Assembly (NCBI GenBank): GCA_022709735.1
Contig: JAKLIG010000001.1
Location: 192,586 to 256,585 of the forward strand
From: Patescibacteria group bacterium
Lineage (GTDB): Bacteria > Patescibacteriota > Minisyncoccia > Moranbacterales > UBA2206
DNA: 64,000 nt
Direction of reading: 5' to 3'
Shown: in pieces, positions 14,859 through 32,472 of the stretch
Position numbering within the stretch: the stretch's first letter is position 1
How the letters are laid out: each line of letters begins with the position of its first letter
Notes under the pieces: model-generated
What the model was told of the DNA's origin: nothing
The model's database searches: none
Seen by the model: only the letters and a program-made list of their open reading frames with translations
Translations under genes and position numbers: made by a program

Positions 14859-15794
14859 ATGAATGGAAAACTGGATTTGTCAGTTATAGTTCCTCTATAC
14901 AATGAAGAGGGGAATGTTCGCGAGCTTCATCGAAAGATAAAAGAAGCTTGCGAAAAATTAGGAAGAAGTTTTGAAATTATTTTTATCGACGACGGTTCTC
15001 GCGATAAAACAGTGGAAAATTGCGCTGGTCTTTCTCCGTTAAAGCTTATTACCTTTCGTCGCAATTTCGGCCAGACGGCTGCTTTTGATGCCGGAGTGAA
15101 AAATTCGCTCGGAGAAATTATTGTGATGATGGACGGTGATTTGCAAAATGATCCAGCTGACATTTCTCTTCTTCTTGCAGAAATGGAAAAAGGTTTTGAC
15201 ATTATCGCTGGTTGGAGATGGCAAAGAAAAGATTCATTTAGCAAGAAGTTTTTTTCGCGAGGAGCTAATCTGCTTCGAAAAATTTTAATTCAAGACAAAA
15301 TTCATGACAGCGGATGTTCACTCAAGGCTTATAAACGCGAATGCTTTCATGATTTGGATCTTTTTGGCGAAATGCACCGATTTATTCCGGCTCTTTTGGA
15401 GCTTCAGGGGTATAAAGTCGGGGAAGTGAAAGTTTCGCATTATCCCAGGGTTCATGGAGTGACAAAATATAATTGGAAAAGAGCAATCAAGGGTTTTGTT
15501 GATATGATTTCTATTTGGTTTTGGCGAAAATATGCCAATCGTCCTCTGCATCTTTTTGGCGGATTAGGAATTGTTTTTTCAATAGTTGGATTTATTATTT
15601 TGGCTTGGATGGCAGTGGAAAAAATTATGGGCGGATCAATCGCGGAAAAAATCTGGCCACTTATCGGCGTGTTCTTCATAATGATTGGTATCCAACTTTT
15701 CGTTTTTGGACTTCTGGCAGATATTCTAATTAAAAATTATTACAAAAGCCAAAATCGAATGAATTATTCAATAAAAGAAATAAAAGAGTCGTAA
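14859..15794 (+). CDS. Polyprenyl-phosphate glycosyltransferase, GT2 (ArnC/GtrB/DPM synthase type, 2 C-terminal TM)
   Basis: 311 aa. LSVIVPLYNEEGNVRELHRKI...IIFIDDGSRDKT...GQTAAFDAGV...MMDGDLQNDP. Two C-terminal hydrophobic helices. Confidence 0.88.
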   Translation: MNGKLDLSVIVPLYNEEGNVRELHRKIKEACEKLGRSFEIIFIDDGSRDKTVENCAGLSPLKLITFRRNFGQTAAFDAGVKNSLGEIIVMMDGDLQNDPADISLLLAEMEKGFDIIAGWRWQRKDSFSKKFFSRGANLLRKILIQDKIHDSGCSLKAYKRECFHDLDLFGEMHRFIPALLELQGYKVGEVKVSHYPRVHGVTKYNWKRAIKGFVDMISIWFWRKYANRPLHLFGGLGIVFSIVGFIILAWMAVEKIMGGSIAEKIWPLIGVFFIMIGIQLFVFGLLADILIKNYYKSQNRMNYSIKEIKES

Positions 15795-16241: not shown

Positions 16242-17579
16242 ATGCGCATTGCAATCATTGGAACGGGCTATGTTGGTTCAGTGACGGGGGCGTGTTTTGC
16301 GGAAATGGGCAACATTGTAATCTGCGTGGACAACAACACGGATAAAATTGCCAAGTTTAACGAAGGGAAAGCGCCTCTTCACGAAAAAGGACTGGACGAA
16401 TTAATTGAAAAAAATTTGAAAAATAAAACCCTTTTTTATACGACTGATTTTGAAAAAGCAGTCAAGGAAAGCGATATAATTTTTATCGCTGTTGGTACTC
16501 CGCCTAATGAAGATGGAAGCGCTGATCTTAGCCATGTCATAACAGTAGCGCGTTCTGTTGGTGAAAAAATGGATCACCCCTTGGTTATTGTCGACAAGTC
16601 TACTGTGCCTGTCGGAACCGCTGAAATGGTCAAGGAAACTATTGCTGAAGAATTGAAGAAGCGAGGAGAGAAAATAGAGTTTTATGTTGTAAGTAACCCG
16701 GAATTTCTGGCTCAAGGAACGGCAGTCAAGGATTTTATGGAGCCTAGCCGAGTTGTGGTGGGCGCAGATAGCGAGAAAGTCCTAGAGACCATGAAAGAGC
16801 TGTACGCGCCTTTTATGCGCCGCGAGGGCCGTTTTTTTGCGATGGATCCCAAAACTGCCGAAATGGTGAAGTATGCTTCTAATTGTTTTTTAGCCGCTAA
16901 AATTTCGGTTAATAATGAATTGGCGAATATTTGCTCCCGCATTGGAGCTGATTTCGATTTGGTTCGAAAAGCGATGGGTGCTGATCCTCGAATTGGCGAA
17001 CCTTTTATGTATGCCGGTCCGGGGTTCGGTGGCAGTTGTTTTCCAAAAGATGTAAGAGCGCTTATAAAAATTGCCAAGGATAGCGATTATAAAGCGGAAA
17101 TGTTTTTGCAAACACTGGATACCAATGAAAAGCAAAAACATGTTTTAGCTGATATGCTTTTAGCGCAACTCGGAGAAGATTTGAGTGGAAAAAATTTTTG
17201 CGTTTGGGGATTAGCTTTCAAGGCTGGTACGGATGATATGCGGGAATCTTCCGCGCTCACAATTATTAATAAATTAATTTCAAAAGGTGCGCTTATTAAA
17301 GCTTATGATCCGGAAGCAATGCAAATGGCAAAGACGCCGGAATATTTTGGTGATAATTCAGCGATAAATTATTTTGAAAATAAATATGATGCTTTGGACG
17401 ACAGTGACGCATTGCTCATCATTACAGAATGGAAAGATTTTCGCACCCCGGATTTTTCGGAAATAAAAAAGCGATTGAAACAACCATTGATTTTTGACGG
17501 CCGTCTTTTGTATGATCCCAAAAAAATGCAGGAACTTGGTTTTAAATATCATTCAATCGGACGATCGTCCAAAAAATAA
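16242..17579 (+). CDS. ugd: UDP-glucose 6-dehydrogenase
   Basis: 445 aa. MRIAIIGTGYVGSVTGACFAEMGN.V.CVD, GFGGSCFPKDV (catalytic Cys region). The gene is visibly GC-richer than its neighbours. Confidence 0.92.
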   Translation: MRIAIIGTGYVGSVTGACFAEMGNIVICVDNNTDKIAKFNEGKAPLHEKGLDELIEKNLKNKTLFYTTDFEKAVKESDIIFIAVGTPPNEDGSADLSHVITVARSVGEKMDHPLVIVDKSTVPVGTAEMVKETIAEELKKRGEKIEFYVVSNPEFLAQGTAVKDFMEPSRVVVGADSEKVLETMKELYAPFMRREGRFFAMDPKTAEMVKYASNCFLAAKISVNNELANICSRIGADFDLVRKAMGADPRIGEPFMYAGPGFGGSCFPKDVRALIKIAKDSDYKAEMFLQTLDTNEKQKHVLADMLLAQLGEDLSGKNFCVWGLAFKAGTDDMRESSALTIINKLISKGALIKAYDPEAMQMAKTPEYFGDNSAINYFENKYDALDDSDALLIITEWKDFRTPDFSEIKKRLKQPLIFDGRLLYDPKKMQELGFKYHSIGRSSKK

Positions 17580-17582
17580 AAT

Positions 17583-18566
17583 ATGAAAAATAAAATACTT
17601 AATAAGGCTAAGAAAATTAAGGAAATTGTTTCAAGAAATAGAAAAAAATTAGAAATAACATTCTTGGTTTTTCTGATTGCAATTGCTATTTCAATTTTCA
17701 GTTTCAGCCCCTTGCGAAAAAATATTTCCGGTTTTATTTTGAAAAAGGCTTGTCTAAAATCAGCTCAAAATATTCCCGATGATTCATTAGGGGAAGAATA
17801 TATTGAAGATAATTCTGTAAAAAAAATGCCAGATCTTGTTATTGGAGCAATGGCTGATTTGCATGCAGAATCCAGAACATATGAGATGATCAGTACTTTT
17901 ACTAAAAAAGTACAAGAACGATTAGAAGAGGAAGGGAAAGCAGATTTTATAATTGAGTTAGGAGATTTTATAGAAAATAGAAACAAGTATGGGAAGGGTA
18001 TGAAAAAACAACCAAGAGAAGAAGGCCTAGCAGAATGGAAAAAAGCCGACTCAAGTTTTTTAGGATATACTCCTCGCTATCATGTAGTTGGAAATCATGA
18101 GATGTTCAGTTTTTTTAAAAATGATTACGAAGAACTAATTGGTCTTAATAGTTATTATTCCTTTTTGGTTAAGGGATATCAAATTATAGTTTTGGATTCA
18201 AATTACAACTTATTTTCTGGGCGAGATGTTGAGCTCAACAATGAAGAGGAGGGCGCTTATGCGGGAGCTATTCCCAAAGAAGAAATGCAATGGCTAGAAG
18301 AAAGGCTCAAGGAAGAAGATAAAAATATTATTTTTGTTCACCATCCCTTGTATAGTGTAAAAAAGAGCGTTGAAATCGAAAATTTACTTAAAAAATATAA
18401 CAAAAAGATAGTTTTAATTGCGAGCGGGCATAAGCATAAAACTAGAAGCCTTACTTTTGCAGGCATTGATTATATCGATATGCCCTCCCTGGAACTCCAA
18501 AAACAATATGCAATTATAAGCATAAAAGGAAAAAAATCTGAGGTTGAATTTTTGAATTTGCAATAA
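17583..18566 (+). CDS. Membrane-anchored calcineurin-like metallophosphoesterase
   Basis: 327 aa. N-terminal TM (LEITFLVFLIAIAISIFSF). MPE motifs ADLHAE, LGDFIEN, VVGNHE, FVHHPLY, SGHKH. Confidence 0.75.
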   Translation: MKNKILNKAKKIKEIVSRNRKKLEITFLVFLIAIAISIFSFSPLRKNISGFILKKACLKSAQNIPDDSLGEEYIEDNSVKKMPDLVIGAMADLHAESRTYEMISTFTKKVQERLEEEGKADFIIELGDFIENRNKYGKGMKKQPREEGLAEWKKADSSFLGYTPRYHVVGNHEMFSFFKNDYEELIGLNSYYSFLVKGYQIIVLDSNYNLFSGRDVELNNEEEGAYAGAIPKEEMQWLEERLKEEDKNIIFVHHPLYSVKKSVEIENLLKKYNKKIVLIASGHKHKTRSLTFAGIDYIDMPSLELQKQYAIISIKGKKSEVEFLNLQ

Positions 18567-18572
18567 AAAATT

Positions 18573-20654
18573 ATGAGAATTTTGATTTTAAATTATGAAT
18601 ATCCGCCACTCGGCGGGGGAGCGGGAAATGCTACTTTTTATATGCTCAAGGAATTTTCGAAAATTCCCGATTTTTATGTTAGTCTTGTGACTTCATCAGC
18701 AGACAAAGAATATCATCTAGAAAAAATAGGGGAGAATATAGAAATTCATAAATTGCCAATTGGAAAAAATAATAATGATATGCACTTTCAAACCAATAAG
18801 GATTTGCTTGTTTATTCTTGGAAAGCCTATTGGTTTTCGAAAAAACTCGCTAGGGAGAAAGAATTTGATGTAGCGCTGGCATTTTTTGGAATTCCTTGCG
18901 GATGCATTGCGAAAAAATTAGGCTTACCCTATATTGTCAGTCTTCGCGGAAGCGATGTGCCTTTTTACAATGAACGCTTTCATTTTTTGGATAAACTCTT
19001 TTTCAAATTTATGAGTAGGGGAATATGGAAAGAAGCGCAAAAAGTTGTGGCGCTAAGCAAGGATCTTGCCTTTCTTGCAAAAAAAACATCGCCTAATCAA
19101 GAAATAACAGTGGTGCGAAATGGCATAAATACAAGTGAATTTTATCCAAGCGAAGAAGCATTGAAAAATGAAAAAACTTTCAATATTCTTTTTGTGGGGA
19201 GATTGATTGAAAGAAAAGGAGCGATATATATGCTGGAAGCCTTCAAGAGCTTATCTAAAAAATATGAAAATATCAGACTGCTAATTGCCGGCGAAGGGCC
19301 ACTTCTGGAAAAATATAAGAAATTCGCCAGAGATAATAATTTATCAGAAAAAATTATTTTTCTTGGTATTGTGAATCATAATGAAATTGCAAAAATTTAT
19401 CAAAAATCGCATGTTTTTATTTTGCCGTCCCTAAATGAAGCCTTGGGAAATGTAACGCAAGAAGCGCTGGCTTCAGGCCTTCCAATCATCACGACTGACA
19501 CTGGAGCGGCCGAGTTAATCGACGAAAACGGATTTATCATCAGGAAAAAATCTTCGCAAGATATTTCAGATTGTCTTGAAAAAGTTATAAACAATGAAAA
19601 TCTGCGCCAAGAAATGTCAAAAAAAAGTCGCGAAGCGGCCGAAAAAATGTCTTGGAGTGAAGTCGCCAGGCGGTATGTGGAAATATTAAAAAAGGCATCT
19701 GTAAAAAAAGAAAAACCGGGGAAAAATAATAAATTAAAATTAATTTTCAAGCTTATTGCAACCGCTATTTTTCTTGTTTGGATTTTTTTCAAAATTGATT
19801 GGCCGGAAGTTCTGGTCTATTTTGAAAAACTGGATATCTGGTGGATGTTTGCCTTTGTGGTAATTTATGCCGGCGGAACATTGATTTCTTCATATAAATG
19901 GAAACTCTTGGCAGATTTTAAGGGAATTAATCTTAAATTTTGGGAAATTTTCAAAATTTATCTGACTGGCGCTTTTATAAATAATTTTTTTCCTTCTATC
20001 ATTGGGGGAGATACCTATCGTTCCTATACTTTGGGCAAAGCAGGAAATAAAAAATATTTAGAAGCCACTTCAACTGTTTTTGCCGATAGGCTTATTGGTT
20101 TTGCCGGAGTGATGCTTCTAATCATTGTTTTTAGTTTGCTTGATTTGAGCGCGGTTTTTGAAAATCATGTTCTTTTAGTTGCTAATTTGGCGATAATTGC
20201 TTTTTTTGCAATCAATTTTTTTCTCGTAGCTATCAGAAAAATCCCAATTTGGGATTTTGTGAAAAAGTTTATTCCGGAAAAAATAATAGGACTTATCCGT
20301 GAGATACGCTTCTACCAACAGCATAAAATTCTCATTAAAACCTTGTTTTTAGGAGCGGCTTTTAATTTTTTCGGAGTCGGACTAGCTTCTTGGATGCTTT
20401 TTCTTGATCTGCATATTCCGATAAGTTTCATTGATTTTATGATTGCCATTTCTATTGTTAGTATCGTTTCTTCTGTTCCAGTGAGTATTGGAAATATCGG
20501 CATCAAAGAGTGGGCTTTTATTACTTTTTTTGGGATTTTTGGAGTGAATGGTGAAGCGGCAATTTCCATTGCCATTTTTGGAAGATTTTTGCAAATGATT
20601 GTCAGTTTTTTTGCGATACCGTTTTACTTAAAAGAAAAAAATAAAAAAATATGA
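18573..20654 (+). CDS. GT4 glycosyltransferase fused to a C-terminal UPF0104 / MprF-like (lysyl-PG synthase TM-type) flippase-like domain
   Basis: 693 aa. N-terminal 370 aa is GT4 (MRILILNYEYPPLGGGAGN; EX7E region LNEALGNVTQEALASGLPIITTD). C-terminal about 300 aa has 7-8 TM helices with FINNFFPSIIGGDTYRSYTLGK, characteristic of the UPF0104 family. Confidence 0.7.
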   Translation: MRILILNYEYPPLGGGAGNATFYMLKEFSKIPDFYVSLVTSSADKEYHLEKIGENIEIHKLPIGKNNNDMHFQTNKDLLVYSWKAYWFSKKLAREKEFDVALAFFGIPCGCIAKKLGLPYIVSLRGSDVPFYNERFHFLDKLFFKFMSRGIWKEAQKVVALSKDLAFLAKKTSPNQEITVVRNGINTSEFYPSEEALKNEKTFNILFVGRLIERKGAIYMLEAFKSLSKKYENIRLLIAGEGPLLEKYKKFARDNNLSEKIIFLGIVNHNEIAKIYQKSHVFILPSLNEALGNVTQEALASGLPIITTDTGAAELIDENGFIIRKKSSQDISDCLEKVINNENLRQEMSKKSREAAEKMSWSEVARRYVEILKKASVKKEKPGKNNKLKLIFKLIATAIFLVWIFFKIDWPEVLVYFEKLDIWWMFAFVVIYAGGTLISSYKWKLLADFKGINLKFWEIFKIYLTGAFINNFFPSIIGGDTYRSYTLGKAGNKKYLEATSTVFADRLIGFAGVMLLIIVFSLLDLSAVFENHVLLVANLAIIAFFAINFFLVAIRKIPIWDFVKKFIPEKIIGLIREIRFYQQHKILIKTLFLGAAFNFFGVGLASWMLFLDLHIPISFIDFMIAISIVSIVSSVPVSIGNIGIKEWAFITFFGIFGVNGEAAISIAIFGRFLQMIVSFFAIPFYLKEKNKKI

Positions 20655-21592
20655 AAAAAATATCTATAATAATTCCTGCATACAATGAAGAAAAAAATAT
20701 TATTCCTATCTATAAAGAAATTGCAAAGGCATTTGATATATTAGAAGCGGGTTATATTCATGAGATATTTTTTATCAATGATGGAAGTGTTGATACTACG
20801 GCAGGTGAAATAAAAAAGTTGGTTCAAAAGGATAAAATGGTCAAGTATATAGAATTTTCTCGAAATTTTGGGAAAGAAATGGCAACTTCTGCAGGATTAA
20901 ATCATTGTTCCGGGGATGCTTGTATTATGATTGATGCTGATTCGCAACATCCAGCTGAACTTATTTCTGAATTTATCAAAAAATGGGAACAAGGGTTTGA
21001 AGTGGTAATTGGTGTTAGAAAAAAAAGCAAGAGTGATAGCTGGCCCAAAAAATTAGGATCGCAAATTTTCTATAAAATATTAAATAAAATTTCAGATATT
21101 GAAGTTGTTCCCGGTTCGACAGATTTTCGCCTATTGGATCGAAAGGTAATCAATGAATTTAATCGTTTTACAGAAACCAATCGGATGACCAGGGGTCTAA
21201 TCGACTGGCTTGGATTCAAAAGAAGTTTTATTTATTTCGAAGCCGATGATCGGCTTAATGGAACGGCTAACTATGGATTTTGGGAGCTGGTTAAATTGGC
21301 TATGGTTGGTTTTGTATCGCTTAGTTTTTTCCCATTAAAGCTGGCGGGATATTTTGGTGTTCTGATTTCTTCTCTCTCTGGTATTGCAGGGCTGTATATT
21401 CTTATTGGAAAATATATCTTTCATTTGAAATTTGCTTCTACTTTTTCTGATGCTGAAAATCTTGCTATTTTTATTGTATTTTTAGTTGGAATAATATTGA
21501 CATTTTTAGGGCTAATTTCTCTCTATATAGCTAATATCCACAGCGAAGTTGTTAATCGACCGATGTATGTTGTCAGAGAAAAGGAAATTTAA
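20651..21592 (+). CDS. Polyprenyl-phosphate glycosyltransferase, GT2 (ArnC/GtrB type, C-terminal TMs)
   Basis: 313 aa. ISIIIPAYNEEKNIIPIYKEI...FFINDGSVDTT...MIDADSQHP. Two C-terminal TM helices. ATGA overlap with the upstream gene. Confidence 0.88.
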   Translation: MKKISIIIPAYNEEKNIIPIYKEIAKAFDILEAGYIHEIFFINDGSVDTTAGEIKKLVQKDKMVKYIEFSRNFGKEMATSAGLNHCSGDACIMIDADSQHPAELISEFIKKWEQGFEVVIGVRKKSKSDSWPKKLGSQIFYKILNKISDIEVVPGSTDFRLLDRKVINEFNRFTETNRMTRGLIDWLGFKRSFIYFEADDRLNGTANYGFWELVKLAMVGFVSLSFFPLKLAGYFGVLISSLSGIAGLYILIGKYIFHLKFASTFSDAENLAIFIVFLVGIILTFLGLISLYIANIHSEVVNRPMYVVREKEI

Positions 21593-21605: not shown

Positions 21606-23453
21606 TCATTCTGCTTTGTATATTTTTATAAAATTATCCGGCCGGCCATCAATATAAAATTCCCAAACCGGATTATTTGCTTCGTAGTATTTTTTTAATG
21701 GAACATATTTATTTTTGCAAATGCTTTTATAGTGATTGCACCAATAATCATACATTGATTTGCCATGCTGAGAAATAACATAATAATCAATAGGATCCCA
21801 TTCTTTTTTTAATATATATCTTCGATAAGTTTTCCCCTTAAAAAACTTAGAAAAACCAGTATAATCCGGAAAAACTACTAATTTTTCTGCGTTAGGCAAT
21901 GAATTTAGATATTGTGCTGCTTCATATCCGCCATATCCCCAAGCGCCAGACAAAATATATTTTTCTGGAAGCAGAAAATTAATATAGCTGAAATAAAAAG
22001 GCTTTATTTGCCAAAGACTTACAATGCTTATTGCAATGATAGCAAGTGAAATATATATTTTACTGAACTTTTTTAATTTATCATGAGAAAAAAATTCATA
22101 TAAGCCAAAAGAAGCTAAGATTGAAACCAGCGGATAAAGAATAATACTATAGCGAACTGTTGAGGGAAGATTTTGAGCAACTAAAGCAATATAATAAATT
22201 ATTATAAATAGTGCAATGATAAGTGTGGCAAAATCAATTTTTATTTTTCTAGTACTTTGTTTTATCCAAAAATAGAATAAAGATAGAATAACCAAAGGAG
22301 AAAGAGAAAAAACAAAAGAAAAAAATTGATAGAGGAAATTTTTTATAAGTGAATATTTTTGACTAAAAGCGGATGATCGAGTGGCATACTGCACAATATT
22401 TTCTGGATCTAAAAACAACAATCCGATATTCCAATTTATAATAACTATTGCAAATGTTATTGCCAACAAAAAAGGGACGAGTCTGAAAATATCCATAGTC
22501 CGTTTGGGAAAATAATTTACTGCCTTAATAATAAAGTTGCTATTAAATTTAGTCGCATCAATTATAACGAACAATTGTAAAATAAATATGATTGGAAAGA
22601 TCTTTTTCATTGAGGAATATCCGATTGTATAATCAAAAAATAATTGCTTATCAATAAAAACTGCTGGCATAAAAAAAGAAAAAACAGCCAACGACCCTAA
22701 AACTGTAATTAAATAAAAAAGGGAAATTTTCAATATTTTTTTATGGGCTGGTATTGAAGTTGTTTTCCATTCCGGAATATTTAATAAATAAAAAAGCAAA
22801 GTGGCGAGAAAAAGGAAGGGAAAGAATATAACACTTACAAATTTAGTAAGGAGTGATAAACCAAGAAAAAAAGGAGACAAAAAGATAAATTTCTTTTCCT
22901 CGGTTTTTAGATAAGCTATAAAACTAAGAAGTGTGGCTGTCGAAAACAACCAAAAGAGAGAATCAGGATTAATGATTTGTGAAATTCCTAAGAGTACCGG
23001 GGAAAGAAGCATTAGAGTGAACGACCAAAAAGAAATCCAAAAATTTTTGGTTATTTTTTTTATCAGCCAAAAAATATATAAAATAAACAAGGCGTTAAAA
23101 AACAAAATTGGAAGGCGAAAAACTATAAAAATATCTTGAATTTCGTTCAATAGATCATTTTTATTACCATTGATTTTTTGGATGTGCTTTACTGGATTTT
23201 CTTCCCAAAAAAGACCAATGCCGGAAATTAAAGCAACTGTTATGCCTGGTTTATCGCTAAGAACAGTATTGGCCCAGTTTTCGGGAGCTACTAAGCTATG
23301 CCAGTATTGATGTATTCTATCGTCTAGCCATAAGTGTTCATCAGCTGTTTCAAAATGAGCTAGGTGATAAAAACCAAAAGAAAAATAAATTGCATAAACG
23401 ATTAAAAATAAAAAAGCCAAGACACTCTTTTTCTTAAAATTTATATTTTCCAT
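21606..23453 (-). CDS. GT-C-fold-like polytopic membrane glycosyltransferase (ArnT/PMT-like) with C-terminal extracytoplasmic domain
   Basis: 615 aa. About 11 TM helices. First-loop acidic motif HFETADEHLW (compare the GT-C DE/DD motif). C-terminal 130-aa soluble domain. Confidence 0.5.
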   Translation of the reverse strand: MENINFKKKSVLAFLFLIVYAIYFSFGFYHLAHFETADEHLWLDDRIHQYWHSLVAPENWANTVLSDKPGITVALISGIGLFWEENPVKHIQKINGNKNDLLNEIQDIFIVFRLPILFFNALFILYIFWLIKKITKNFWISFWSFTLMLLSPVLLGISQIINPDSLFWLFSTATLLSFIAYLKTEEKKFIFLSPFFLGLSLLTKFVSVIFFPFLFLATLLFYLLNIPEWKTTSIPAHKKILKISLFYLITVLGSLAVFSFFMPAVFIDKQLFFDYTIGYSSMKKIFPIIFILQLFVIIDATKFNSNFIIKAVNYFPKRTMDIFRLVPFLLAITFAIVIINWNIGLLFLDPENIVQYATRSSAFSQKYSLIKNFLYQFFSFVFSLSPLVILSLFYFWIKQSTRKIKIDFATLIIALFIIIYYIALVAQNLPSTVRYSIILYPLVSILASFGLYEFFSHDKLKKFSKIYISLAIIAISIVSLWQIKPFYFSYINFLLPEKYILSGAWGYGGYEAAQYLNSLPNAEKLVVFPDYTGFSKFFKGKTYRRYILKKEWDPIDYYVISQHGKSMYDYWCNHYKSICKNKYVPLKKYYEANNPVWEFYIDGRPDNFIKIYKAE

Positions 23454-23506
23454 AGTTAATTACTACTATTGATTATATTGAATTTATTGTTTATAATTAT
23501 TTTAGC

Positions 23507-25702
23507 ATGAATATTAGCAAAAGAAAAATAATATGCAGTCTGCTTTTTTTAATTGTGCTTTTGGGCGCATTTTTGCGGTTATATAAAATCGGAGGCGAAG
23601 CTTTTGCTCGTGATGAATTTTTCGATATCAACACTTCCTACGGATATTTCAAAACTGGGGAGTGGCTGGCTTGGGATTTCAATATGAACCAGCCTCTTGA
23701 AGCGGCCTTGCAAAAAGATTATAGCAATACTCGCGCCCAACTTTTCCGCATCCCGTTAGCATTAGCTTATAATTTTATGGAGCCAACCGAAGGTCATGCT
23801 AGGTTGATTAGTGTTTTTTGGGGGATTGTAAGTATTATTGCAATATATTTTATAACCCTATCTTTTACTGGGAATGCCTATGTCGCACTTCTGGCGGCGC
23901 TTCTTGTTGCCATTGGCGAATCGGAGATAATTTTTGGCCGACGACTTCGGATGTATTCTATGTTTTTTCCAATTTATTTGATTTTTTCTTGGTGCGTTTT
24001 TAAGATCTATGAATCTGTCTATAGTGGCAAAGTGATTATTTTTCAAAAAATCTACGATAAATTAAAGATTAATCCAATTTTTATTATTCCGGCGATGATT
24101 GTTGGTTTTGTAAGTTATGAAATTCACGAGCTTACAGTGCATATTGTTTTTACGCTTGTAGCATATTGCTTAATTTTGGCAGCGCTTAATTTCAAAAAAG
24201 AAAAATATTTTCTTAACAAATATACCCTAACACTTTTGGGTGGATTTTTTGGCTTTCTCGTCTTGAAAGTAGCATTTAGCGGACTATATAAGGATTTTGA
24301 TAAAGCTGTTAGTTTTTGGCAGGACAATTATCGGTGCTTTGGATTCTTTTTTACGGATTTTAGATATCTTTCTTTTGGCATATTGCTTTTTTCTTTGGGC
24401 GGACTATTTTTAGCTTTCAAACTCAAGCGCAAAAAAGAAGCGCTGTTTATTTTTCTTTCCGCAGTTGTTCCGCTTTTTTATGCCGTTTTTTCCTGGGTAA
24501 GAGAACCAGCCGCGCGCTATATTTATTTCATTCAATCATTTGGAATTATTTTTTCAGCTTCTGGCATTTATGCCGTTTATTATTTTTTAGCAGAAAGATT
24601 CGAGAATTATAAAAAAATAATTGCTGTGGTAATTTTAATGTCAACTTTTGCGCTACTTGATTTTTCATACATTACAGGCAAAGATAATCTTTATCAACAA
24701 AGAGAAACTTCTAATTTTATCGATTTTCGAAAAGTTTTTGCCGTAGCGAAGGAAAACATGAAACCGGGCGATGTGATGATTACAAGAGCCTATCGCAGTT
24801 TTTATTTTCCAAACTGGAAAGCGAAAGCGTATGATGTGAAAGCTTTGCCCTTAGAAAAACAAAATTGTCAGGAAATATTTGCCAAGATAATTTCCGAAAA
24901 TGAAAGCGGAATAGTAGTTCTGCCAGAGATTGATCATTTGTCAGTTTGTAAAAACGGACGGAAATATTTAGAAGATAATTTAATCAAAATCCCGTCACAA
25001 GTGAGTGGTGTAAATATTTATCGCTGGGATAAAAAAGGATTTCAAATAACAATTGCAACTGATTTGCACGCTGCAATGGGTCCGAAAGAAAAAGATATTT
25101 TTGGCGGAACAAAATGGAAAGAAAAAATGGACTATCTATTGGATAAGTCGAAAAATTCAGAATTTATCGCGATGCTGGGAGATAATATACAATCAAGAGA
25201 CGATCAAAGTTTTGAGGAATTGAAAAAGTATGAGCAAGAGTCGGGCAAAAAATTTATTTGGGTCAATGGAAATCATGATAAGGAGTTGGATCAAAATGGA
25301 GATCGAAGAGGTCTGTATATGAGCGGTCAAAAATATTATTATGTAGATCATAATAATTGGAGAATGATTGTTTTGTATAATCTTAAACAAAATAAAGATA
25401 AGGATTTTGATTGTTGGGAGATTGACAAAGAACAAATGGCTTGGCTGGAATCCACACTAAAAACTGAAAATGATAAGATTGTTTTTATGCATTGCCCTAT
25501 TTTTAGAGATGAGATTAAAAAAGAATTGCGCAAAAAATATTTACCACTGCATGATTTATTTAAAAAATATAATGTAAAATATGTATATGCTGGCCATTGG
25601 CACGAACAAGATATTGAAAAAATTTTTGATGATATTACCTATAGGGTTATTCCGATGATTGATGTTTATGATAAGCGGTATGAAATTTTGCAACTTAAAT
25701 AA
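23507..25702 (+). CDS. GT-C-like polytopic membrane protein fused to C-terminal calcineurin-like metallophosphoesterase (paralog 1 of 3)
   Basis: 731 aa. N-terminal about 400 aa with about 10 TM helices and a loop-1 ARDEFFDINTSYGYFKTGEWLAWDF motif. C-terminus has ITIATDLHA, LGDNIQ, GNHD, FMHCP, GHWHE (MPE motifs). Confidence 0.65.
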   Translation: MNISKRKIICSLLFLIVLLGAFLRLYKIGGEAFARDEFFDINTSYGYFKTGEWLAWDFNMNQPLEAALQKDYSNTRAQLFRIPLALAYNFMEPTEGHARLISVFWGIVSIIAIYFITLSFTGNAYVALLAALLVAIGESEIIFGRRLRMYSMFFPIYLIFSWCVFKIYESVYSGKVIIFQKIYDKLKINPIFIIPAMIVGFVSYEIHELTVHIVFTLVAYCLILAALNFKKEKYFLNKYTLTLLGGFFGFLVLKVAFSGLYKDFDKAVSFWQDNYRCFGFFFTDFRYLSFGILLFSLGGLFLAFKLKRKKEALFIFLSAVVPLFYAVFSWVREPAARYIYFIQSFGIIFSASGIYAVYYFLAERFENYKKIIAVVILMSTFALLDFSYITGKDNLYQQRETSNFIDFRKVFAVAKENMKPGDVMITRAYRSFYFPNWKAKAYDVKALPLEKQNCQEIFAKIISENESGIVVLPEIDHLSVCKNGRKYLEDNLIKIPSQVSGVNIYRWDKKGFQITIATDLHAAMGPKEKDIFGGTKWKEKMDYLLDKSKNSEFIAMLGDNIQSRDDQSFEELKKYEQESGKKFIWVNGNHDKELDQNGDRRGLYMSGQKYYYVDHNNWRMIVLYNLKQNKDKDFDCWEIDKEQMAWLESTLKTENDKIVFMHCPIFRDEIKKELRKKYLPLHDLFKKYNVKYVYAGHWHEQDIEKIFDDITYRVIPMIDVYDKRYEILQLK

Positions 25703-25720
25703 TTAAATTATTTATCCTAT

Positions 25721-27244
25721 ATGAAAAAAATATCCTTGGTTGTGTTATTTATAATTATTTTGCTTGGTGCTGGGCTTAGAATTTATAATTTAGGCGAGAA
25801 ATCTTTTGATCGAGATGAATTTTTTGAGCTGAATTCTTCTTATGGATATTTCAAGACTGGGACTTGGGTAGCATGGGATTTTGGCAATGAGAAACCCTTT
25901 GAGGCGAGTTTGCAAGATAAAACCAGCACAGAACGAGCAGAAATTTATAGATGGCAGATAGCACAACTTTATCGATTTTTTGAACCCTCTGAAACAGTGA
26001 CTCGCTCAATTAGCGCTTTTTGGGGAATAATCAGTATAGCGCTGATTTATTTTGTAACTTTATATTTTACTAAAAATCACGGAATTGCGCTTTTAGCAGC
26101 ATTTCTTACGGCGATTGGCGAATCCGGAATGATTTATAGCCGACGCCTTCGGATGTATTCAATGCTGTTTCCCGCTTATCTTATTTTTTCTTGGTTAGTT
26201 TATAAATTCTATGAAGCTAAGTATGAAGGTAAGAATAAATTATTTGAATTTTTTTCAGATAAATTCAAAGTTAATCTTCTTTATTTCTTACCAGCGCTAA
26301 TTGCAGGGCTTATTAGTTACAATGTCCATATGCTCACGGCGAGTATTGTTGCTACGATAACTGCGTTTTCAATTTTCAGCTGGCTATGGTGGGAAAGAAA
26401 AGAAAAAATAAATAAATATTCCATAACACTAGCCTTGATTTTTATTGCTTATCTTTTTATAAGTCTGATTCCACAATTGGCCAAGTTTTATAAATCCTTT
26501 AAAAAGCAAGTAGAATTGTTCAAATTTAATCCAGATTATTTTATTGATTATTTTACTGATTTTAATTTTTTTATTCTAGGTTTTATTTTGATGATTTTTG
26601 GTGTTTGGTATTTGGCAAAAAAAATGGAAAAGAAAAAAGAAGCCTTGTTTCTTTTTCTTTCTGCTATTGTTCCGCTTATTTTTGCTATTTTTACCTGGGT
26701 AAGATTTCCAGCGCAAAGATACATTTATTTCGTCCAGTCTTTTGGAATAATTCTAATCGCGGTTGGAATTTATGCGGTTCTTTGTTATTTAAATATTTAT
26801 CTTAAAAATAGAAAAATAATTCTAGTACCATTTTTTATTCTAATGCTTATTCTTTTGATTGATTTTTCTTATTTTAAAAAAGAAAATCAAATCTATGCTC
26901 ATACAAAAAATTCATTTTATCCGAACTTTAGAAATATTTTTCCTTATATTTTGAAAAATAAAAAAGAAAGTGATGTTTTCATCACTCGCTCATATCGAAG
27001 TTACTATTGGCTAGGGGACAAAGTGAAAGTTTTCGATTTGCAAGCGCTTCCATTTGAAAAAAAGGATTGTGGAAAAATTGTCAGTGAAGCCATTGTCGAA
27101 AACAAAAGCGGTTGGTTTATTCTGCCTGACATCGACGAAGGATTTATTTGCAAGGAAGGAAGGGACTATCTTGGCAATAATTATAAAAAAATAGAAAATG
27201 AAAATATTCCCAATACTGTTTCAATTTACCGCTGGGGTGAATAA
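25721..27244 (+). CDS. GT-C-like polytopic membrane protein (paralog 2, lacks the phosphoesterase domain)
   Basis: 507 aa. Residue-by-residue paralogy with the N-terminal halves of 23507-25702 and 27251-29389 (DRDEFFELNSSYGYFKTGTWVAWDF, RRLRMYSMLFPAYLIFSW). Ends before the MPE domain. Confidence 0.65.
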   Translation: MKKISLVVLFIIILLGAGLRIYNLGEKSFDRDEFFELNSSYGYFKTGTWVAWDFGNEKPFEASLQDKTSTERAEIYRWQIAQLYRFFEPSETVTRSISAFWGIISIALIYFVTLYFTKNHGIALLAAFLTAIGESGMIYSRRLRMYSMLFPAYLIFSWLVYKFYEAKYEGKNKLFEFFSDKFKVNLLYFLPALIAGLISYNVHMLTASIVATITAFSIFSWLWWERKEKINKYSITLALIFIAYLFISLIPQLAKFYKSFKKQVELFKFNPDYFIDYFTDFNFFILGFILMIFGVWYLAKKMEKKKEALFLFLSAIVPLIFAIFTWVRFPAQRYIYFVQSFGIILIAVGIYAVLCYLNIYLKNRKIILVPFFILMLILLIDFSYFKKENQIYAHTKNSFYPNFRNIFPYILKNKKESDVFITRSYRSYYWLGDKVKVFDLQALPFEKKDCGKIVSEAIVENKSGWFILPDIDEGFICKEGRDYLGNNYKKIENENIPNTVSIYRWGE

Positions 27245-27250
27245 TTTTTT

Positions 27251-29389
27251 ATGAGTAATAAAAAAATCATTATAATTCTTTTGATAATTTTAGCGCTTGG
27301 CGCTTTTTTGCGTTTTTGGAAACTTGACCAACAACCTTTTGTAACGGATGAATTTTTGGATATCAATGCAACTTATGGATATTTCAAAACAGGAGAGTGG
27401 GTGGCATGGGATTTCAATCTTGATCAAGTGAGTGATAATTTGTATGCGCCAAGAGAGGAACGTGCTTGGATTTATCGTGCTCAAGTAGCGCAATTATTCC
27501 ATTTTTTTCCTTTGACGGAAGCAACTGCAAGGTCAGTGAGCGCCTTATGGGGAGTTTTTAGTATAATTATTTTATATTTTGTTTCGACTTATTTTACAAA
27601 AAACAAAACTATCGGGCTTATCTCGGCTTTTCTTTTTGCAGTGAGCATCGCCGGGATAACATTTGACCGGATGCTTCGAATGTACGCCATGTTTTTTCCG
27701 GTTTTTCTTCTTTTTTCTTGGTTTCTTTTTCGATTTTTTGAAGAAGAATATGCGGGTAAGGTCGCAATCATTAAGTTTGTTTGGAATAAATTTGGAATAA
27801 ATTTAAAGTGGTTTTTGCCAGCAACATTTTTTGGACTGCTAAGTTTTCATCTTCATCCGCTCACACTTAATATTGGTGTGGTTTTCGGTGTTTATCTCAT
27901 CATTCAATCCTGTGTGGCTTTTTATCAAAAAAGAACCATATTGAATAAATATACAGCCATTTTATTTTTAACATTACTTGGTTTGATTGCAGCGTATATA
28001 AATAATTCTCAAATATATTCGTTCTATTCCAAAAAAGATCTAATTGCTTTTGATCACGCAAGATGGCGATATTTGCAATCAGTAGCTTCAGATTATATAA
28101 ATGTTTTCTTAGCTTACGGGTTGATTTTTTTCGGTTTTTATGAGCTTAAGAAAAATATCAAAATTCAAAAAGAATCCGTTTGGCTAGTTTGTTGTTTTTT
28201 GGCGATAATTTTTTCAGCCGTATTTTTTTGGAATGAGGTTTTTGGTTTGCGTTTTATTTTCTTTGCGATGTCTTTTGGGATAATTTTGCTTTCAAGCGGA
28301 ATATATTTTTTGGCAGAAAAAAATGGAAAATATTTTCCCGCGTATCAAAAAAAAGTTTTTGTTGGTGTGCTAATGACGGCACTTTTGATTGTTCCAAATT
28401 ATGGTTATTTTTTTTCCAAAGAAAGTCCATATCGAAAAGATGAAACCAAGACTGACTATCGAGCATCTTTCCAATATTTTTTGGATAATAAGAATGAAGA
28501 TGATTCTTTGCTAACGCGAAATTTTCGTAGTTTCTACTACAAAAACGCCAAAGCTAAAATTATCAATAAGGAATGGAACAAAAAAATCAGCTTGGATGAA
28601 TTGAAAAAAATAATGACGGAAAATCCCAGTGGATGGATTGTGACAGGCGATCCAAAAGGGGACATGGAAAAAGACGCTTTGAAATATATAGAAGAAAATT
28701 CACTGGATAAAAAAGAAATTGGCGGAGTTCAAATTTATCATTGGAGTAATAAAGAATTTCAAATAACCATCGCCACTGATTTACACGCTGGGAAAGAGCC
28801 TATAGAAGGAGAAGGCTACGACCCAAGAAAATGGAAAGAAAAACTCGATTATTTAATGGGAAAATCAACCAATTCTAAATTTATAGTAATGGCTGGTGAT
28901 AATCAACAGAGTCCTAATTATGAAATTGCTGATTTACTTAAAGATTACGAAAAACAATCCGGAAAAGATTTTATTTGGGTTAATGGAAATCACGACGGCG
29001 ATATTTATATAAGTAATCAAAAGCATTATTATATAGATTATAATGATTGGAGAATGATTGTTTTATATAATCTTGATCCAAGCGATGATTATGATTGTGC
29101 AAAAGTTGACGAAGAGCAAATGGTTTGGTTGGAATCGATATTGAAAACTGACAAAAAGAAAATTGTTTTTTTGCATTGTCCGGTTTTTAGTAATGGCAAT
29201 GGAAAAAAAGAAGTGCGAGACAGATATAAAGAACTTACGGAGTTATTTAATAATAATAGCGTAGCTTATGTTTATTCTGGGCATTGGCATACTGGTGATT
29301 TTAGGACAAAAATAGATAATGTAGAATATAGGGTTCTTTTGCAGTTGGATTCTTATGGAAATTTTTATGATATTTTAAAACTAGAATAG
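27251..29389 (+). CDS. GT-C-like polytopic membrane protein fused to C-terminal metallophosphoesterase (paralog 3)
   Basis: 712 aa. TDEFLDINATYGYFKTGEWVAWDF. C-terminus has ITIATDLHAG, AGDNQQ, GNHD, FLHCP, GHWHTGD. Confidence 0.65.
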   Translation: MSNKKIIIILLIILALGAFLRFWKLDQQPFVTDEFLDINATYGYFKTGEWVAWDFNLDQVSDNLYAPREERAWIYRAQVAQLFHFFPLTEATARSVSALWGVFSIIILYFVSTYFTKNKTIGLISAFLFAVSIAGITFDRMLRMYAMFFPVFLLFSWFLFRFFEEEYAGKVAIIKFVWNKFGINLKWFLPATFFGLLSFHLHPLTLNIGVVFGVYLIIQSCVAFYQKRTILNKYTAILFLTLLGLIAAYINNSQIYSFYSKKDLIAFDHARWRYLQSVASDYINVFLAYGLIFFGFYELKKNIKIQKESVWLVCCFLAIIFSAVFFWNEVFGLRFIFFAMSFGIILLSSGIYFLAEKNGKYFPAYQKKVFVGVLMTALLIVPNYGYFFSKESPYRKDETKTDYRASFQYFLDNKNEDDSLLTRNFRSFYYKNAKAKIINKEWNKKISLDELKKIMTENPSGWIVTGDPKGDMEKDALKYIEENSLDKKEIGGVQIYHWSNKEFQITIATDLHAGKEPIEGEGYDPRKWKEKLDYLMGKSTNSKFIVMAGDNQQSPNYEIADLLKDYEKQSGKDFIWVNGNHDGDIYISNQKHYYIDYNDWRMIVLYNLDPSDDYDCAKVDEEQMVWLESILKTDKKKIVFLHCPVFSNGNGKKEVRDRYKELTELFNNNSVAYVYSGHWHTGDFRTKIDNVEYRVLLQLDSYGNFYDILKLE

Positions 29390-29390
29390 G

Positions 29391-30422
29391 TTAATATTTT
29401 TTAACACTCACCACCGCTGAATTTCCATTTATTTTTGCAACAGCGACAGATCGCTGATGATAAGCTGAAGGGATATTGTAATTTTTTACTCCGCCAAAAG
29501 TTATCACACCAAGCGTAGCTGGGTGCTTATGTCCGTTGGCAACCATAACAATTCTTTCTTTATTCTTGCTTAGAATTTTTTCAACTTTATTTTTATTAGA
29601 AAGATTCCATAGTGGATGATGGATGAAAATAAGATTTTTTGAACTTTGTTTGAGCTGGGCTTCCAGCCATTCTAGCGCGCCCGAAGTGATTGTTCCGGTG
29701 TAGATGAAGGTATCATCGTGTTTGGCATCAATATGATCTTCTTCGCCTGTATAATTACCATCCAAAACTATAATTTGGTATCCTTTAGCGTTGGCGGTAT
29801 AGCGATTTTTTCGGCCGGTTAAACTGGCAACATTATCTTTGCTCATACTTAAGAGTTCATGATTTCCAACAGTATGATAAGTTGGAAAGGCAGAAAGTAT
29901 GCCACTAGCTTTTCTATAATCAACCTCGGCGTCTTTTTTAGAAATGTATCCCTTAGTAGTTCGGCTTTCAATTAAATCTCCTAAATCTACGATAATATCC
30001 GGCTGCACTTGATTTCGGAAAACCCAGACAGCTGAATTGAGAGAAGAAAATCCATGCGCTTGTCCGGCATGAGCGTCAGCAATAATCCCAACAGTTAGAT
30101 CTGGTCGTGGGGCTTCTTCTTCGGAAGTTTCTTTTTTTGCGGTTTCTTCTGGGACAGTAGCATCTTTATTTGCGTCATTAGTTTTAACTTCTTCTTGGTT
30201 GCTCTCTGGCTTTATTTCTTGCTTTTCATTTTGAGAAGTCGCAATATTTTTTGGCTCCAAAATAATTTCGGCCGGAGCGGTTTTTTGCTCTTCCTGCTTA
30301 ACACCTAAAAATTTTTCAAAACTTTTTGGATATTGGTAGAAGAAAATAAAAGCAAGCACTACTAAGAGTGAAAGAAATGGCAATAAGTGAGATTTTATAG
30401 ATTTCTTTTTTAGCTCGTCCAT
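29391..30422 (-). CDS. Membrane-anchored calcineurin-like metallophosphoesterase with E/K-rich linker
   Basis: 343 aa. N-terminal TM LLPFLSLLVVLAFIFF, about 80-aa low-complexity E/K/T linker, then IIADAHAG, LGDLIE, VGNHE, FIHHPLW, NGHKH. Confidence 0.75.
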   Translation of the reverse strand: MDELKKKSIKSHLLPFLSLLVVLAFIFFYQYPKSFEKFLGVKQEEQKTAPAEIILEPKNIATSQNEKQEIKPESNQEEVKTNDANKDATVPEETAKKETSEEEAPRPDLTVGIIADAHAGQAHGFSSLNSAVWVFRNQVQPDIIVDLGDLIESRTTKGYISKKDAEVDYRKASGILSAFPTYHTVGNHELLSMSKDNVASLTGRKNRYTANAKGYQIIVLDGNYTGEEDHIDAKHDDTFIYTGTITSGALEWLEAQLKQSSKNLIFIHHPLWNLSNKNKVEKILSKNKERIVMVANGHKHPATLGVITFGGVKNYNIPSAYHQRSVAVAKINGNSAVVSVKKY

Positions 30423-30425
30423 AGA

Positions 30426-31889
30426 TTAACTTTTTTTAAATATAATTTTTTTGAAAAAATCAAAATCGTTTTTAGTAAATTCCTTGAGAATAATCAAGGC
30501 AAAGAGATAAACGCCGGAAAGAATAGCTCCCCATAAAATGAAAATCCATTTTTGCGGAGGGAAAAAATATGAAGCAAGGAACATGGCAATTCCTGCTAGA
30601 AGTATTTTTAGAATTTTTTTAATTTCAACAAAACTTCCGAAATATTGAAATGCATAGAGCAATATTATTAAGGTGATTATAACCGAAACAATGGATGTGG
30701 CAGCGGCTGATCCAGAAATTCCGAACCTTGAAATCATGACATAATTCAACCCGGCGTTCAAAATCATTCCAAAAAGCGCAACATACATAGGAATTTTGAC
30801 TTTTCCGGCTCCATTTAGGGCAAAACTGATAATATAAAAAATTGTAAGAAAACCGACACCGGGGGCAAGAATTTGCATTGGGAGAGCGGAATCTGCATAG
30901 CGCGAGCCGAAAAATAATTGAATAAGAGGCGTGGCATAAACAACCATAAGAATTATTATTGGGACTAAAATCATAAACATCAATCTGAAAGTCTGGGTCA
31001 TTATTCTTTTTGCTTCCTCGTGATTATTTTGGGTAATTGCTCTTGAAATTGAAGGAAGCATAACTAAAGTTAGTGCGTAAAATAAATAGTAGGGGATTCG
31101 ACCGACAGTGAGAGAAGCGTTGTAAATTCCAGTCAGATGATCATTGGCGAGCACTCCCTTGACTAAATATAGATCCAAAGAAATCAGAAGCTCATAAAAA
31201 ATCATAAAAAGTGTTACCGGCCAAGCATAATTTATGAGTTTTTTCCAATCAAAAACCTCCTGATTATCTTTGGGAAATTGTCGATCAATAAACAGCCAAT
31301 CGATAAAGAAGGCGGTTAGAAAAACTGTGGCAGGAGAGAGAATATAGCCTATAACCGATCCCTTAAGTCCGAAAAAATAAGCTAGCCCGATGATAAAAAA
31401 TATTTTTGCAAAAGAACGGACGATTTTCAAAGTGGACTGCAAGTTGAAGCGATGAATGCCGATATAGAAATAAAGATAAAAAGAAGCGGCAGCAAAAGAA
31501 GGAATGATTAAAGAGGAAATGCGAAAAAGGGGAGTGAGGGTTGGATCACGCAAAAGAAAAGACAAGACCGGAGCCAAAAGAAAAAAGATTATAGTAATAA
31601 ATCCGATAAGAAAAAACTGCAAAAAAGCCGCCTTTTTTTTGACATTCAGCACTAATCCTGGCTGTTTTTCAAAAAAACCACTAATATATTTGCTCATTGC
31701 TGTTGGAATGCCGTTTCCAATTAGCATTATAATCATTGTGGTGAGCGTAACAATAAGGCCATATCGCCCATAATCAGCCGGACCAAGCATTCTTCCTAGA
31801 AAGGCATGAATAACATAGCCAGAAAAATTAAAAAATATTTCTGCAATAGCAAGCCATAAAATTGATGAAACAACTGATTGTTTCTTCAT
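30426..31889 (-). CDS. Polysaccharide/oligosaccharide flippase, MOP superfamily (Wzx-like)
   Basis: 487 aa, with 12-14 TM helices and typical Wzx organisation. 3-nt gap to the downstream phosphoesterase gene. Confidence 0.65.
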   Translation of the reverse strand: MKKQSVVSSILWLAIAEIFFNFSGYVIHAFLGRMLGPADYGRYGLIVTLTTMIIMLIGNGIPTAMSKYISGFFEKQPGLVLNVKKKAAFLQFFLIGFITIIFFLLAPVLSFLLRDPTLTPLFRISSLIIPSFAAASFYLYFYIGIHRFNLQSTLKIVRSFAKIFFIIGLAYFFGLKGSVIGYILSPATVFLTAFFIDWLFIDRQFPKDNQEVFDWKKLINYAWPVTLFMIFYELLISLDLYLVKGVLANDHLTGIYNASLTVGRIPYYLFYALTLVMLPSISRAITQNNHEEAKRIMTQTFRLMFMILVPIIILMVVYATPLIQLFFGSRYADSALPMQILAPGVGFLTIFYIISFALNGAGKVKIPMYVALFGMILNAGLNYVMISRFGISGSAAATSIVSVIITLIILLYAFQYFGSFVEIKKILKILLAGIAMFLASYFFPPQKWIFILWGAILSGVYLFALIILKEFTKNDFDFFKKIIFKKS

Positions 31890-32465: not shown

Positions 32466-32472
32466 AATTTAA

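Follow-up and report, generated by a model that had tools for sequence, protein, structure and literature searches.

The DNA analyzed here is a 64-kb window, by which we mean the whole stretch under study (~33% G+C), on contig JAKLIG010000001.1 of an uncultivated Moranbacteria bacterium (Patescibacteria group). Three consecutive plus-strand genes in it encode paralogous membrane proteins, P1 (positions 23507..25702, 731 amino acids (aa)), P2 (25721..27244, 507 aa) and P3 (27251..29389, 712 aa), exactly the coordinates and lengths given in the original prediction, a note made from the sequence without database searches. As modeled, P1 consists of a GT-C membrane domain with 11 transmembrane (TM) helices (aa 1-~390), a soluble outer domain (aa ~400-507) and a metallophosphoesterase (MPE) domain (aa ~512-731, window ~25040-25699). 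P3 has its GT-C part at aa 1-498 and its MPE at aa ~503-712 (window ~28757-29386), and P2, whose orthologs in related arrays are 67-71% identical, has the membrane and soluble outer domains without an MPE. The genes lie 18 bp (P1-P2) and 6 bp (P2-P3) apart, the opposite strand holds no open reading frame of 100 aa or more, and the three probably form one operon of a conserved Moranbacteria envelope-glycan island. A weak promoter-like site (TTGATT-17-TATAAT, 23469..23497, plus strand) sits in the 53-bp divergent intergenic region upstream of P1; with 38 such sites found in the region and 39.7 expected in shuffled sequence, it is suggestive by position alone.

P2 and P3 are 48% and 41% identical to P1 over ~505 aa, a span that takes in 11 predicted TM helices and a ~105-aa soluble C-terminal domain. 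The paralogy first proposed from the sequence thus stands, and the shared region is longer than the ~400 aa and ~10 TM helices it had been given. The acidic first-loop motif proposed with it is present in all three proteins, at aa 35-58 of P1 (RDEFFDINTSYGYFKTGEWLAWDF; 23609..23680, plus strand), aa 31-54 of P2 and aa 32-55 of P3, except that P3 reads N-A-T where the proposed pattern had N[ST]S. In P1 it holds the putative catalytic pair D36-E37, ~10 residues after TM1 and at the position of the DE motif of PMT-type GT-C enzymes. Together with R24, R76, R99, R148, M149 and Y150, these two residues are invariant in 97 of 97 family members from 83 loci, fused copies included, and the family has invariant motifs of its own (DEF..N..YGYFKTG.W.AWDF and R.LRMY).

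The structure model of an array protein contains 11 TM helices. Averaged over 46 sequences, the loops predicted to lie inside carry a net charge of +14.0 and those predicted to lie outside +0.1. From the number of helices and the positive charge of the inner loops, the N-terminus is predicted to lie inside and the C-terminus outside. The small soluble alpha/beta domain at residues ~400-507, with conserved R427, R430 and W507, is the outer soluble domain usual in the PMT_2-like group. The best fold matches of the N-terminal part are AglB (score 23.6), ArnT (23.1), STT3B (22.9), ALG12 (22.6), Pmt4 (22.2), Pmt2 (20.5), PglB (18.7) and AftA (18.5), which bears out the GT-C-like domain originally suggested. 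On these models, P1-P3 are GT-C-fold integral membrane proteins with 11 TM helices, an inside N-terminus, an invariant Asp-Glu in the first outer loop and a small C-terminal soluble outer domain.

Within the PMT_2 (ArnT/PMT-like) group, the array family forms a divergent branch without a name of its own. Pfam, to which the original prediction had pointed for both domains, recovers Metallophos in P1 and P3, as detailed below, and gives no PMT or PMT_2 match in P1-P3 at E up to 1. PMT_2 is matched by 6 of 46 family members (E up to 0.01, best E 6e-6), and distant relatives recovered in an exhaustive family-profile search exceed its gathering score (29.6-33.4 bits vs 26.1). When PDB sequences were searched with a profile of the family, the sole match was a non-significant one to Pmt1 (E 0.24) that placed family R99 opposite Pmt1 residue 138. 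Some family members are already labelled 'glycosyltransferase family 39 protein' or 'ArnT-like' by NCBI/JGI. That P1-P3 pass no curated GT-C hidden Markov model threshold could speak for a domain that, instead of being a glycosyltransferase, serves as a scaffold without catalysis or resembles a transporter, much like the GT-C-like PIG-U/GAB1 subunits of the glycosylphosphatidylinositol (GPI) transamidase, with the MPE as sole enzyme. We regard this as very improbable, given that the first-loop Asp-Glu and several outer-boundary arginines are invariant throughout, as expected for a catalytic base and phosphate-binding residues, that polyprenyl-phosphate sugar synthase genes flank the array, and that most members lack any MPE.

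The C-terminal domains of P1 and P3 are complete MPEs, as originally proposed. Pfam Metallophos (PF00149, gathering score 21.5) matches P1 at aa 513-700 (47.7 bits, E 3e-12) and P3 at aa 504-681 (42.6 bits, E 1e-10), and all five motifs are present on alignment: DLH (519-521), GDN (558-560), GNHD (588-591), H662 and GHWH (696-699) in P1, with equivalents in P3. The metal-binding residues of P1 are D519/H521, D559, N589/H590, H662 and H697/H699; the metal-ligand columns are invariant across six aligned MPE domains, the last His of motif V excepted. A separate model of the MPE domain (predicted local distance difference test (pLDDT) 81, predicted template modeling score (pTM) 0.85) has the alpha/beta sandwich of the MPE fold. 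It best matches the ADPRibase-Mn-like protein 2nxf (21.1), Rv0805 (19.9), GpdQ (19.5) and purple acid phosphatase (18.1), and more weakly PhoD (13.8), 5'-nucleotidases (~11-12) and LpxH (10.8). By this model, the dimetal phosphoesterase domains of P1 and P3 are complete and belong to the CpdA/GpdQ/Rv0805/ADPRibase structural class. The likeness to class III cyclic-nucleotide phosphodiesterases is structural only; NCBIfam equivalogs are far from reached (SpdA 35.1 bits vs 400, CpdA 27.9 vs 225), and PDB sequence searches with fused and standalone MPEs gave no meaningful match.

The MPE starts 4-6 residues after W507 (…IYRW-DKKG-FQITIATDLHA…), without a signal peptide or anchor of its own. Because it begins right after W507, it follows the soluble outer domain and does not replace it, contrary to the arrangement first proposed; because it is directly appended to that outer domain, it is predicted to lie outside the cytoplasmic membrane, where the original prediction had also placed it. 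The two MPE domains are 54% identical and share the same junction. Recent gene conversion between them was considered and rejected, as no alignment window exceeds 70% identity.

Each of the two fused proteins has an identical entry in NCBI, JGI, ENA and Logan (2 contigs), so the fusion is not an artefact of one assembly; their NCBI name is 'MAG TPA: metallophosphoesterase [Candidatus Moranbacteria bacterium]'. An assembly or frameshift artefact is ruled out by these identical proteins in four independent sources and by a fused full-length ortholog (P0205, 75% identical), and read-through into a neighboring gene by the junction, which runs straight into the first MPE strand without an anchor.

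A family profile search returned 243 cluster representatives at E <= 1e-30, and the family was met solely in Moranbacteria/Patescibacteria-type metagenome-assembled genomes (MAGs). The 79 loci from GTDB species genomes carry the titles Moranbacteria, Parcubacteria and Patescibacteria, plus many 'uncultured Bdellovibrionales'; this last title (L014, L016, L018, L025-L027 and ~25 more loci) probably reflects a MAG labelling problem. Most species have one copy of ~508 aa; tandem arrays of three, or four in L012, occur in the clade closest to the window. Nearly all relatives measure ~500-515 aa and lack an MPE, among them orthologs that share 79% identity with P1 and 83-85% with P3, which makes the MPE an add-on; the closest orthologs of P1 and of P3 both lack it. 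The ~505-aa form of P2 is thus the family norm, and P2 is not the truncated copy it had been taken for. P1, P2 and P3 group with array copies one, two and three, respectively, of five or more other species-level genomes, at best identities of 79%, 71% and 85%, and orthologs of each in other Moranbacteria are 55-85% identical. Since each copy forms its own orthologous group, the triplication predates these species. A recent triplication was accordingly rejected, and with it the recent diversification that the original prediction had read into the array.

The GT-C-MPE fusion is rare and patchy among the related genomes surveyed. Type-1 fusions, with motifs GDN/GNHD/GHWH, comprise P1, P3, P0205 and a protein of locus L009; type-2 fusions, with GGD/GNHE/GHIE and a different junction, comprise P0036/L004, L077, P0081 and P0083. 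As the two types differ in both MPE subtype and junction, the fusion arose at least twice. The P3-type fusion occurs in the window and in L086 (P0205, the full-length ortholog mentioned above), and the P1 fusion was seen in this genome only. The L009 protein, encoded by the third gene of its array, is a chimera: its N-domain is that of a fourth paralog group and is 80% identical to the unfused gene preceding the fusion in L086, and its MPE is 88% identical to the L086 MPE. The simplest reading of these identities would be a deletion between two neighboring paralogs at their conserved YRW end. In all four type-2 fusions motif V reads GHIE, with glutamate for the usual second histidine, a conserved metal-ligand variant.

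Other C-terminal additions occur in the family, namely a ~250-aa K/E-rich tail resembling a coiled coil in P0033 (L005 678-2855) and a Laminin_G_3 lectin-like domain in P0145, and the outward C-terminus seems to gain extra domains readily. Distant relatives (150-220 bits; P0098, P0107, P0114, P0124, P0154 and others) have 100-470-aa N-terminal extensions before the GT-C domain, and Pfam matched none of the five extensions scanned.

Separately encoded MPEs also keep company with the family. Of 36 such genes in the 83 loci, 14 abut a family gene (gaps -40 to +19 bp), where uniform placement would give 1.4; in single-copy loci alone the count is 7 of 17 against 0.85 expected. One gene for an anchored MPE, in L006, runs in the direction of the third paralog and overlaps its end. 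A signal peptide or TM anchor is present at all ten standalone MPE N-termini examined, bar one cut by a contig end, and the fused MPE domains begin without either. Since the C-terminus of the GT-C protein is predicted to face outward and the standalone MPEs to be exported or anchored, fusion would keep the MPE in the same compartment. The linkers of the standalone MPEs measure 45-80 aa; a signal peptide but no anchor is found in one close relative of the fused type. In addition, 904-963-aa proteins with a cluster-type MPE lie 3.98-4.15 kb upstream of single-copy family genes (L023 ~1016, L026 ~960, L072 ~974, L074 ~932; minus strand).

These MPEs could serve a purpose unrelated to the GT-C proteins. 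Working outside the cell as phosphodiesterases or nucleotidases, they might supply a nutrient-dependent Patescibacteria cell with phosphate or nucleosides, the GT-C protein being a mere anchor and the adjacency a sign of co-regulated surface proteins. In favor of this, the structures nearest to the MPE (Lmo2642, Rv0805, GpdQ) are phosphodiesterases for cyclic nucleotides and glycerophosphodiesters, the weak NCBIfam matches are to SpdA and CpdA, and most family members work without an MPE; a dependence on scavenged nucleotides is also widely reported for Patescibacteria. Anchoring convenience, however, poorly explains two independent fusions with different MPE subtypes together with 14 abutting pairs where 1.4 are expected, all with one GT-C family. 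Moreover, the standalone MPEs are already self-anchored, the fused GT-C domains retain every invariant residue, and the MPE genes lie inside a syntenic glycan-synthesis cluster. We consider scavenging distinctly improbable.

That cluster belongs to an envelope-glycan island that spans the window from position 1 to ~46.6 kb and contains sugar-nucleotide enzymes, many GT2 and GT4 glycosyltransferases, a UDP-glucose dehydrogenase, a PMT-type GT-C, a Wzx-type flippase, a Wzy_C protein and an LCP (LytR-CpsA-Psr) ligase. Around the array, loci L001-L003 and L006 keep the order Metallophos, GT4/flippase-like, PMT (minus strand), three paralogs, Metallophos, Wzx (minus), Tmk (minus) and RtcB; L006 additionally keeps GT2, intervening-sequence protein and UDP-glucose dehydrogenase genes upstream. 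Two standalone MPEs of the window, both predicted to face outward, are part of this arrangement. The first (17583..18566, plus strand, 327 aa) has a K/R-rich N-terminal stub, one TM helix and a ~45-aa linker before an MPE 28% identical to that of P1 (E 4e-15), with orthologs at the same position in L006-L011. The second (29391..30422, minus strand, 343 aa) is convergent with P3, with one base between the two genes. It has a K/R-rich stub, an N-terminal TM anchor, a ~80-aa charged linker and an MPE 22% identical to that of P1, and orthologs 54-72% identical lie right after the array in L007, L008, L009, L011 and L012.

Divergent from P1 lies a fourth GT-C gene, of PMT/PMT_2 type (21606..23453, minus strand, 615 aa), which exceeds the gathering scores of Pfam PMT (31.3 bits) and PMT_2 (27.8 bits) and keeps its position in L001-L003 and L006. 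Profile comparison of the array family with this protein gave a probability of 3.8%, that is, no detectable similarity, and a recent origin of the array from this neighbor was rejected for want of a profile relationship.

Two full-length ArnC/PgfS-like GT2 genes flank the array. One (14859..15794, plus strand, 311 aa; Pfam GT2 E 7e-30) aligns over its full length with ArnC (168 bits) and PgfS (151 bits), and from this similarity is likely to make a lipid-linked sugar donor; the other (20651..21592, plus strand, 313 aa) aligns likewise with PgfS (230 bits) and ArnC (122 bits), and all four scores fall below the equivalog cut-offs. A PpgS/AglJ-like GT2 lies at 12057-12743, and a further GT2 domain (AglJ/PgfS-like) is part of a 561-aa triple fusion with a GtrA-type TM domain and a SAM-methyltransferase (6987-8672, minus strand), so that the original count of two to four nearby ArnC-like polyprenyl-phosphate GT2 genes holds. 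The GtrA domain is present solely within this fusion, ~15 kb upstream of the array, whereas the GT2 donor-synthase candidates adjoin the GT-Cs.

Further members of the conserved cluster are a GT4 fused to a flippase-like LPG_synthase_TM domain (18573..20654, plus strand, 693 aa; TIGR00374 65 bits vs a cut-off of 43.2) and a UDP-glucose/GDP-mannose dehydrogenase (16242..17579, plus strand, 445 aa) found at the same position in L006. The counterpart of the GT4 fusion in L006 (4583-7881) is one GT4 gene with two separate LPG_synthase_TM genes, a second fusion/split pair in the cluster, which may make and flip a glycolipid. Between the first flanking GT2 and the dehydrogenase lies a '23S rRNA intervening-sequence protein' gene (15834-16181, plus strand; PF05635, bAvd-like), which keeps its position in L006 (1656-2027) and is odd for a glycan cluster. 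The downstream edge is formed by a MOP/Wzx-type polysaccharide flippase (30426..31889, minus strand, 487 aa), at the same position in L001-L003 and L006, and by genes for thymidylate kinase and the RtcB RNA ligase (31896-33777, minus strand), which stand at this edge in all related loci examined (L001-L003, L006). Farther downstream, a Wzy_C protein (41746-43383, plus strand) and the LCP ligase (44650-45834, plus strand) imply a polyprenyl-pyrophosphate-linked wall polymer that is attached to peptidoglycan.

Elsewhere in the window, a 491-aa protein with DUF5648 and SpoIID (13255-14730, minus strand) stands beside glycan genes, and a 643-aa membrane protein with DUF6541 and DUF1616 (35632-37563, minus strand) may be another large glycan-related membrane enzyme. 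Two proteins have no Pfam match: a 560-aa polytopic membrane protein in the island (5288-6970, minus strand) and a 1032-aa protein downstream (56435-59533, minus strand).

We favor the reading, to which we give a probability of roughly 55%, that P1-P3 are polyprenyl-phosphate-sugar-dependent glycosyltransferases of this conserved island, functionally coupled to extracytoplasmic phosphodiesterases. In this scheme, the flanking ArnC/PgfS-like GT2 enzymes would make a polyprenyl-monophosphate-sugar donor, from which the GT-C domains would move the sugar onto an extracytoplasmic acceptor. This acceptor would be a glycopolymer, of the wall or linked to lipid, that the island itself assembles with its Wzx, Wzy-like, LCP ligase, GT4/GT2 and UDP-glucose dehydrogenase functions, and P1-P3 may differ in donor or acceptor specificity. 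The MPE would be a partner enzyme in the same pathway, and the fusions may be 'Rosetta-stone' events in which the GT-C protein replaced the MPE's own membrane anchor.

Several observations weigh against this proposal. P1-P3 fall below every Pfam/NCBIfam GT-C threshold, with only weak matches to Agl23 (E 4e-5), Wzy_C and TM7S3, and their family membership consequently comes from structure prediction and from relatives. The adjacency counts are not phylogenetically independent, although several different arrangements are involved. About 68 of the 83 loci have no adjacent or fused MPE, so that the partnership must be optional. Finally, phosphodiester-polymer builders of the TagF, LtaS, LicD or Stealth type are absent from the annotated window genes. 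This gap among the window genes is the main weakness of the proposal, and it makes an acceptor-side substrate for the MPE hypothetical.

As to what the MPE would act on, our tentative preference, held with less than even confidence, is a phosphodiester on the acceptor or product side and not the lipid-linked donor. The enzyme might cut back a phospho-linked substituent or linkage in the glycopolymer, or else expose or restore the position at which the GT-C domain adds its sugar. Four considerations favor acceptor-side action: the polyprenyl monophosphate left by PMT_2-type enzymes requires no further cleavage; breaking down the donor would serve no purpose; the standalone MPEs have long linkers, and one has no anchor; and the nearest MPE structural class acts on soluble phosphodiesters.

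The main competing explanation, close to the idea in the original prediction, is carrier-lipid handling. Here the outward MPE would hydrolyze polyprenyl pyrophosphate, a stalled polyprenyl-pyrophosphate-glycan or a polyprenyl-phosphate-sugar at the outer leaflet beside the GT-C protein and so restore polyprenyl phosphate, which would make it an extracytoplasmic equivalent of UpsH/YpbG or the UppP/PAP2 phosphatases. UpsH/YpbG, an MPE that acts on undecaprenyl-pyrophosphate (UndPP)-linked wall-polymer intermediates, offers genetic precedent (PMC11898649). Further, the MPEs here are tethered to, or encoded beside, an enzyme with lipid-linked substrates, the Wzx and Wzy-like genes imply pyrophosphate-linked intermediates outside, and oligosaccharyltransferase-type GT-Cs with pyrophosphate-linked donors are among the best fold matches (AglB and STT3B). 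UpsH is reported at the cytoplasmic face, however, and the MPE here is predicted to be outside. The sequence affinity is to PMT_2, whose donors are monophosphates, with ArnC/PgfS-like donor synthases adjacent; cleaving a donor beside its own transferase makes little sense; and long flexible linkers and an anchorless secreted relative fit a membrane-embedded substrate poorly. On balance we think carrier-lipid handling unlikely, if still deserving of attention.

It is tempting to speculate further that the GT-C-MPE proteins and the abutting MPEs together constitute an unrecognized bifunctional step of surface-glycan synthesis, one that physically joins a dimetal phosphodiesterase outside the cytoplasm with a polyprenyl-phosphate-dependent glycosyltransferase. 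Such a step might free or recycle the carrier lipid outside the cell, in place of or alongside phosphatases of the UppP/PAP2 type in the reduced genomes of Patescibacteria; alternatively, it might be a 'cleave-then-glycosylate' exchange on a phosphorylated acceptor. We hold this broader idea to be doubtful.

The Patescibacteria are a very large and mostly uncultivated group whose surface is thought to mediate attachment to host cells, and the construction of that surface is almost uncharted. The locus described here reveals a lineage-specific GT-C family that has repeatedly recruited outward phosphodiesterases, as neighbors and as fusions. Known schemes of polyprenyl-phosphate-dependent glycosylation contain no phosphoesterase step at the outer face of the membrane, and a real coupling, if true, would add a new accessory activity to them. 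If the MPE is an unrelated scavenging enzyme, the finding shrinks to an unusual domain fusion. The fused proteins are a compact, expressible handle for finding the substrate, and the locus is a concrete, testable lead on surface-glycan assembly in Patescibacteria.

To our knowledge, no described ArnT or PMT carries a phosphoesterase domain. Full-text literature on GT-C, metallophosphoesterase, Patescibacteria, polyprenyl and fusion yielded the UpsH study only and no description of the architecture, in agreement with the statement in the original prediction that it knew of no such family. The closest relatives by sequence are the PMT_2/ArnT/PMT GT-Cs (CAZy GT83 and GT39; PF13231 and PF02366). 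The array family shares with them the acidic pair in the first loop, the small C-terminal outer domain, adjacent ArnC-like donor synthases and relatives that pass the PMT_2 threshold; its predicted topology, N-in with 11 TM helices, also agrees with that of PMTs, which have 11. It differs in that P1-P3 lie below all curated thresholds and in having its own invariant motifs.

The cluster as a whole resembles the three-component glycosylation systems (GtrA/GtrB/GtrC; CsbB/GtcA/YfhO; PgfS/PgfM1/PgfM2 of S. mutans), in which a GT2 loads polyprenyl phosphate, a flippase follows and a GT-C transfers the sugar outside. The array-flanking GT2s align over their full length with PgfS/ArnC, and a GtrA domain occurs in the island within the fusion at 6987-8672. 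Those systems have no phosphoesterase, whereas here up to four MPE domains occur per cluster, two of them fused to a GT-C. Several GT-C paralogs per genome, as seen here, are also found in B. subtilis, with YfhO, YkcB and YkoS (PMC11898649). In the same organism, release of undecaprenyl phosphate from UndPP-linked wall-polymer intermediates requires the MPE UpsH (YpbG), a stress-regulon protein reported to act at the cytoplasmic face (PMC11898649). UpsH is like the array MPEs in being an MPE-superfamily enzyme genetically tied to polyprenyl-linked envelope glycan pathways. Unlike them, it is reported at the cytoplasmic face and is not a GT-C partner; the array MPEs are predicted to sit on the outward C-terminus of an 11-TM, N-in protein, and their standalone relatives have signal peptides or N-in anchors.

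The class III-type phosphodiesterases (Lmo2642, Rv0805/CpdA, GpdQ, 2nxf) are only 14-18% identical to the array MPEs, are soluble or self-anchored, and have no glycosyltransferase joined to them. In function, what comes nearest to the favored mechanism is known from eukaryotes. PGAP5/MPPE1 and yeast Cdc1/Ted1 are membrane-bound MPEs that remove ethanolamine-phosphate from GPI mannose, so that in both cases a lumenal or outward MPE would remodel a phosphodiester on a glycolipid mannosylated by GT-Cs; unlike P1 and P3, the eukaryotic enzymes are not fused to GT-C enzymes. Each domain discussed here thus comes from a well-known superfamily, and what is new relative to the searched literature is the GT-C family itself, its persistent association with outward MPEs, and the GT-C-MPE fusion.

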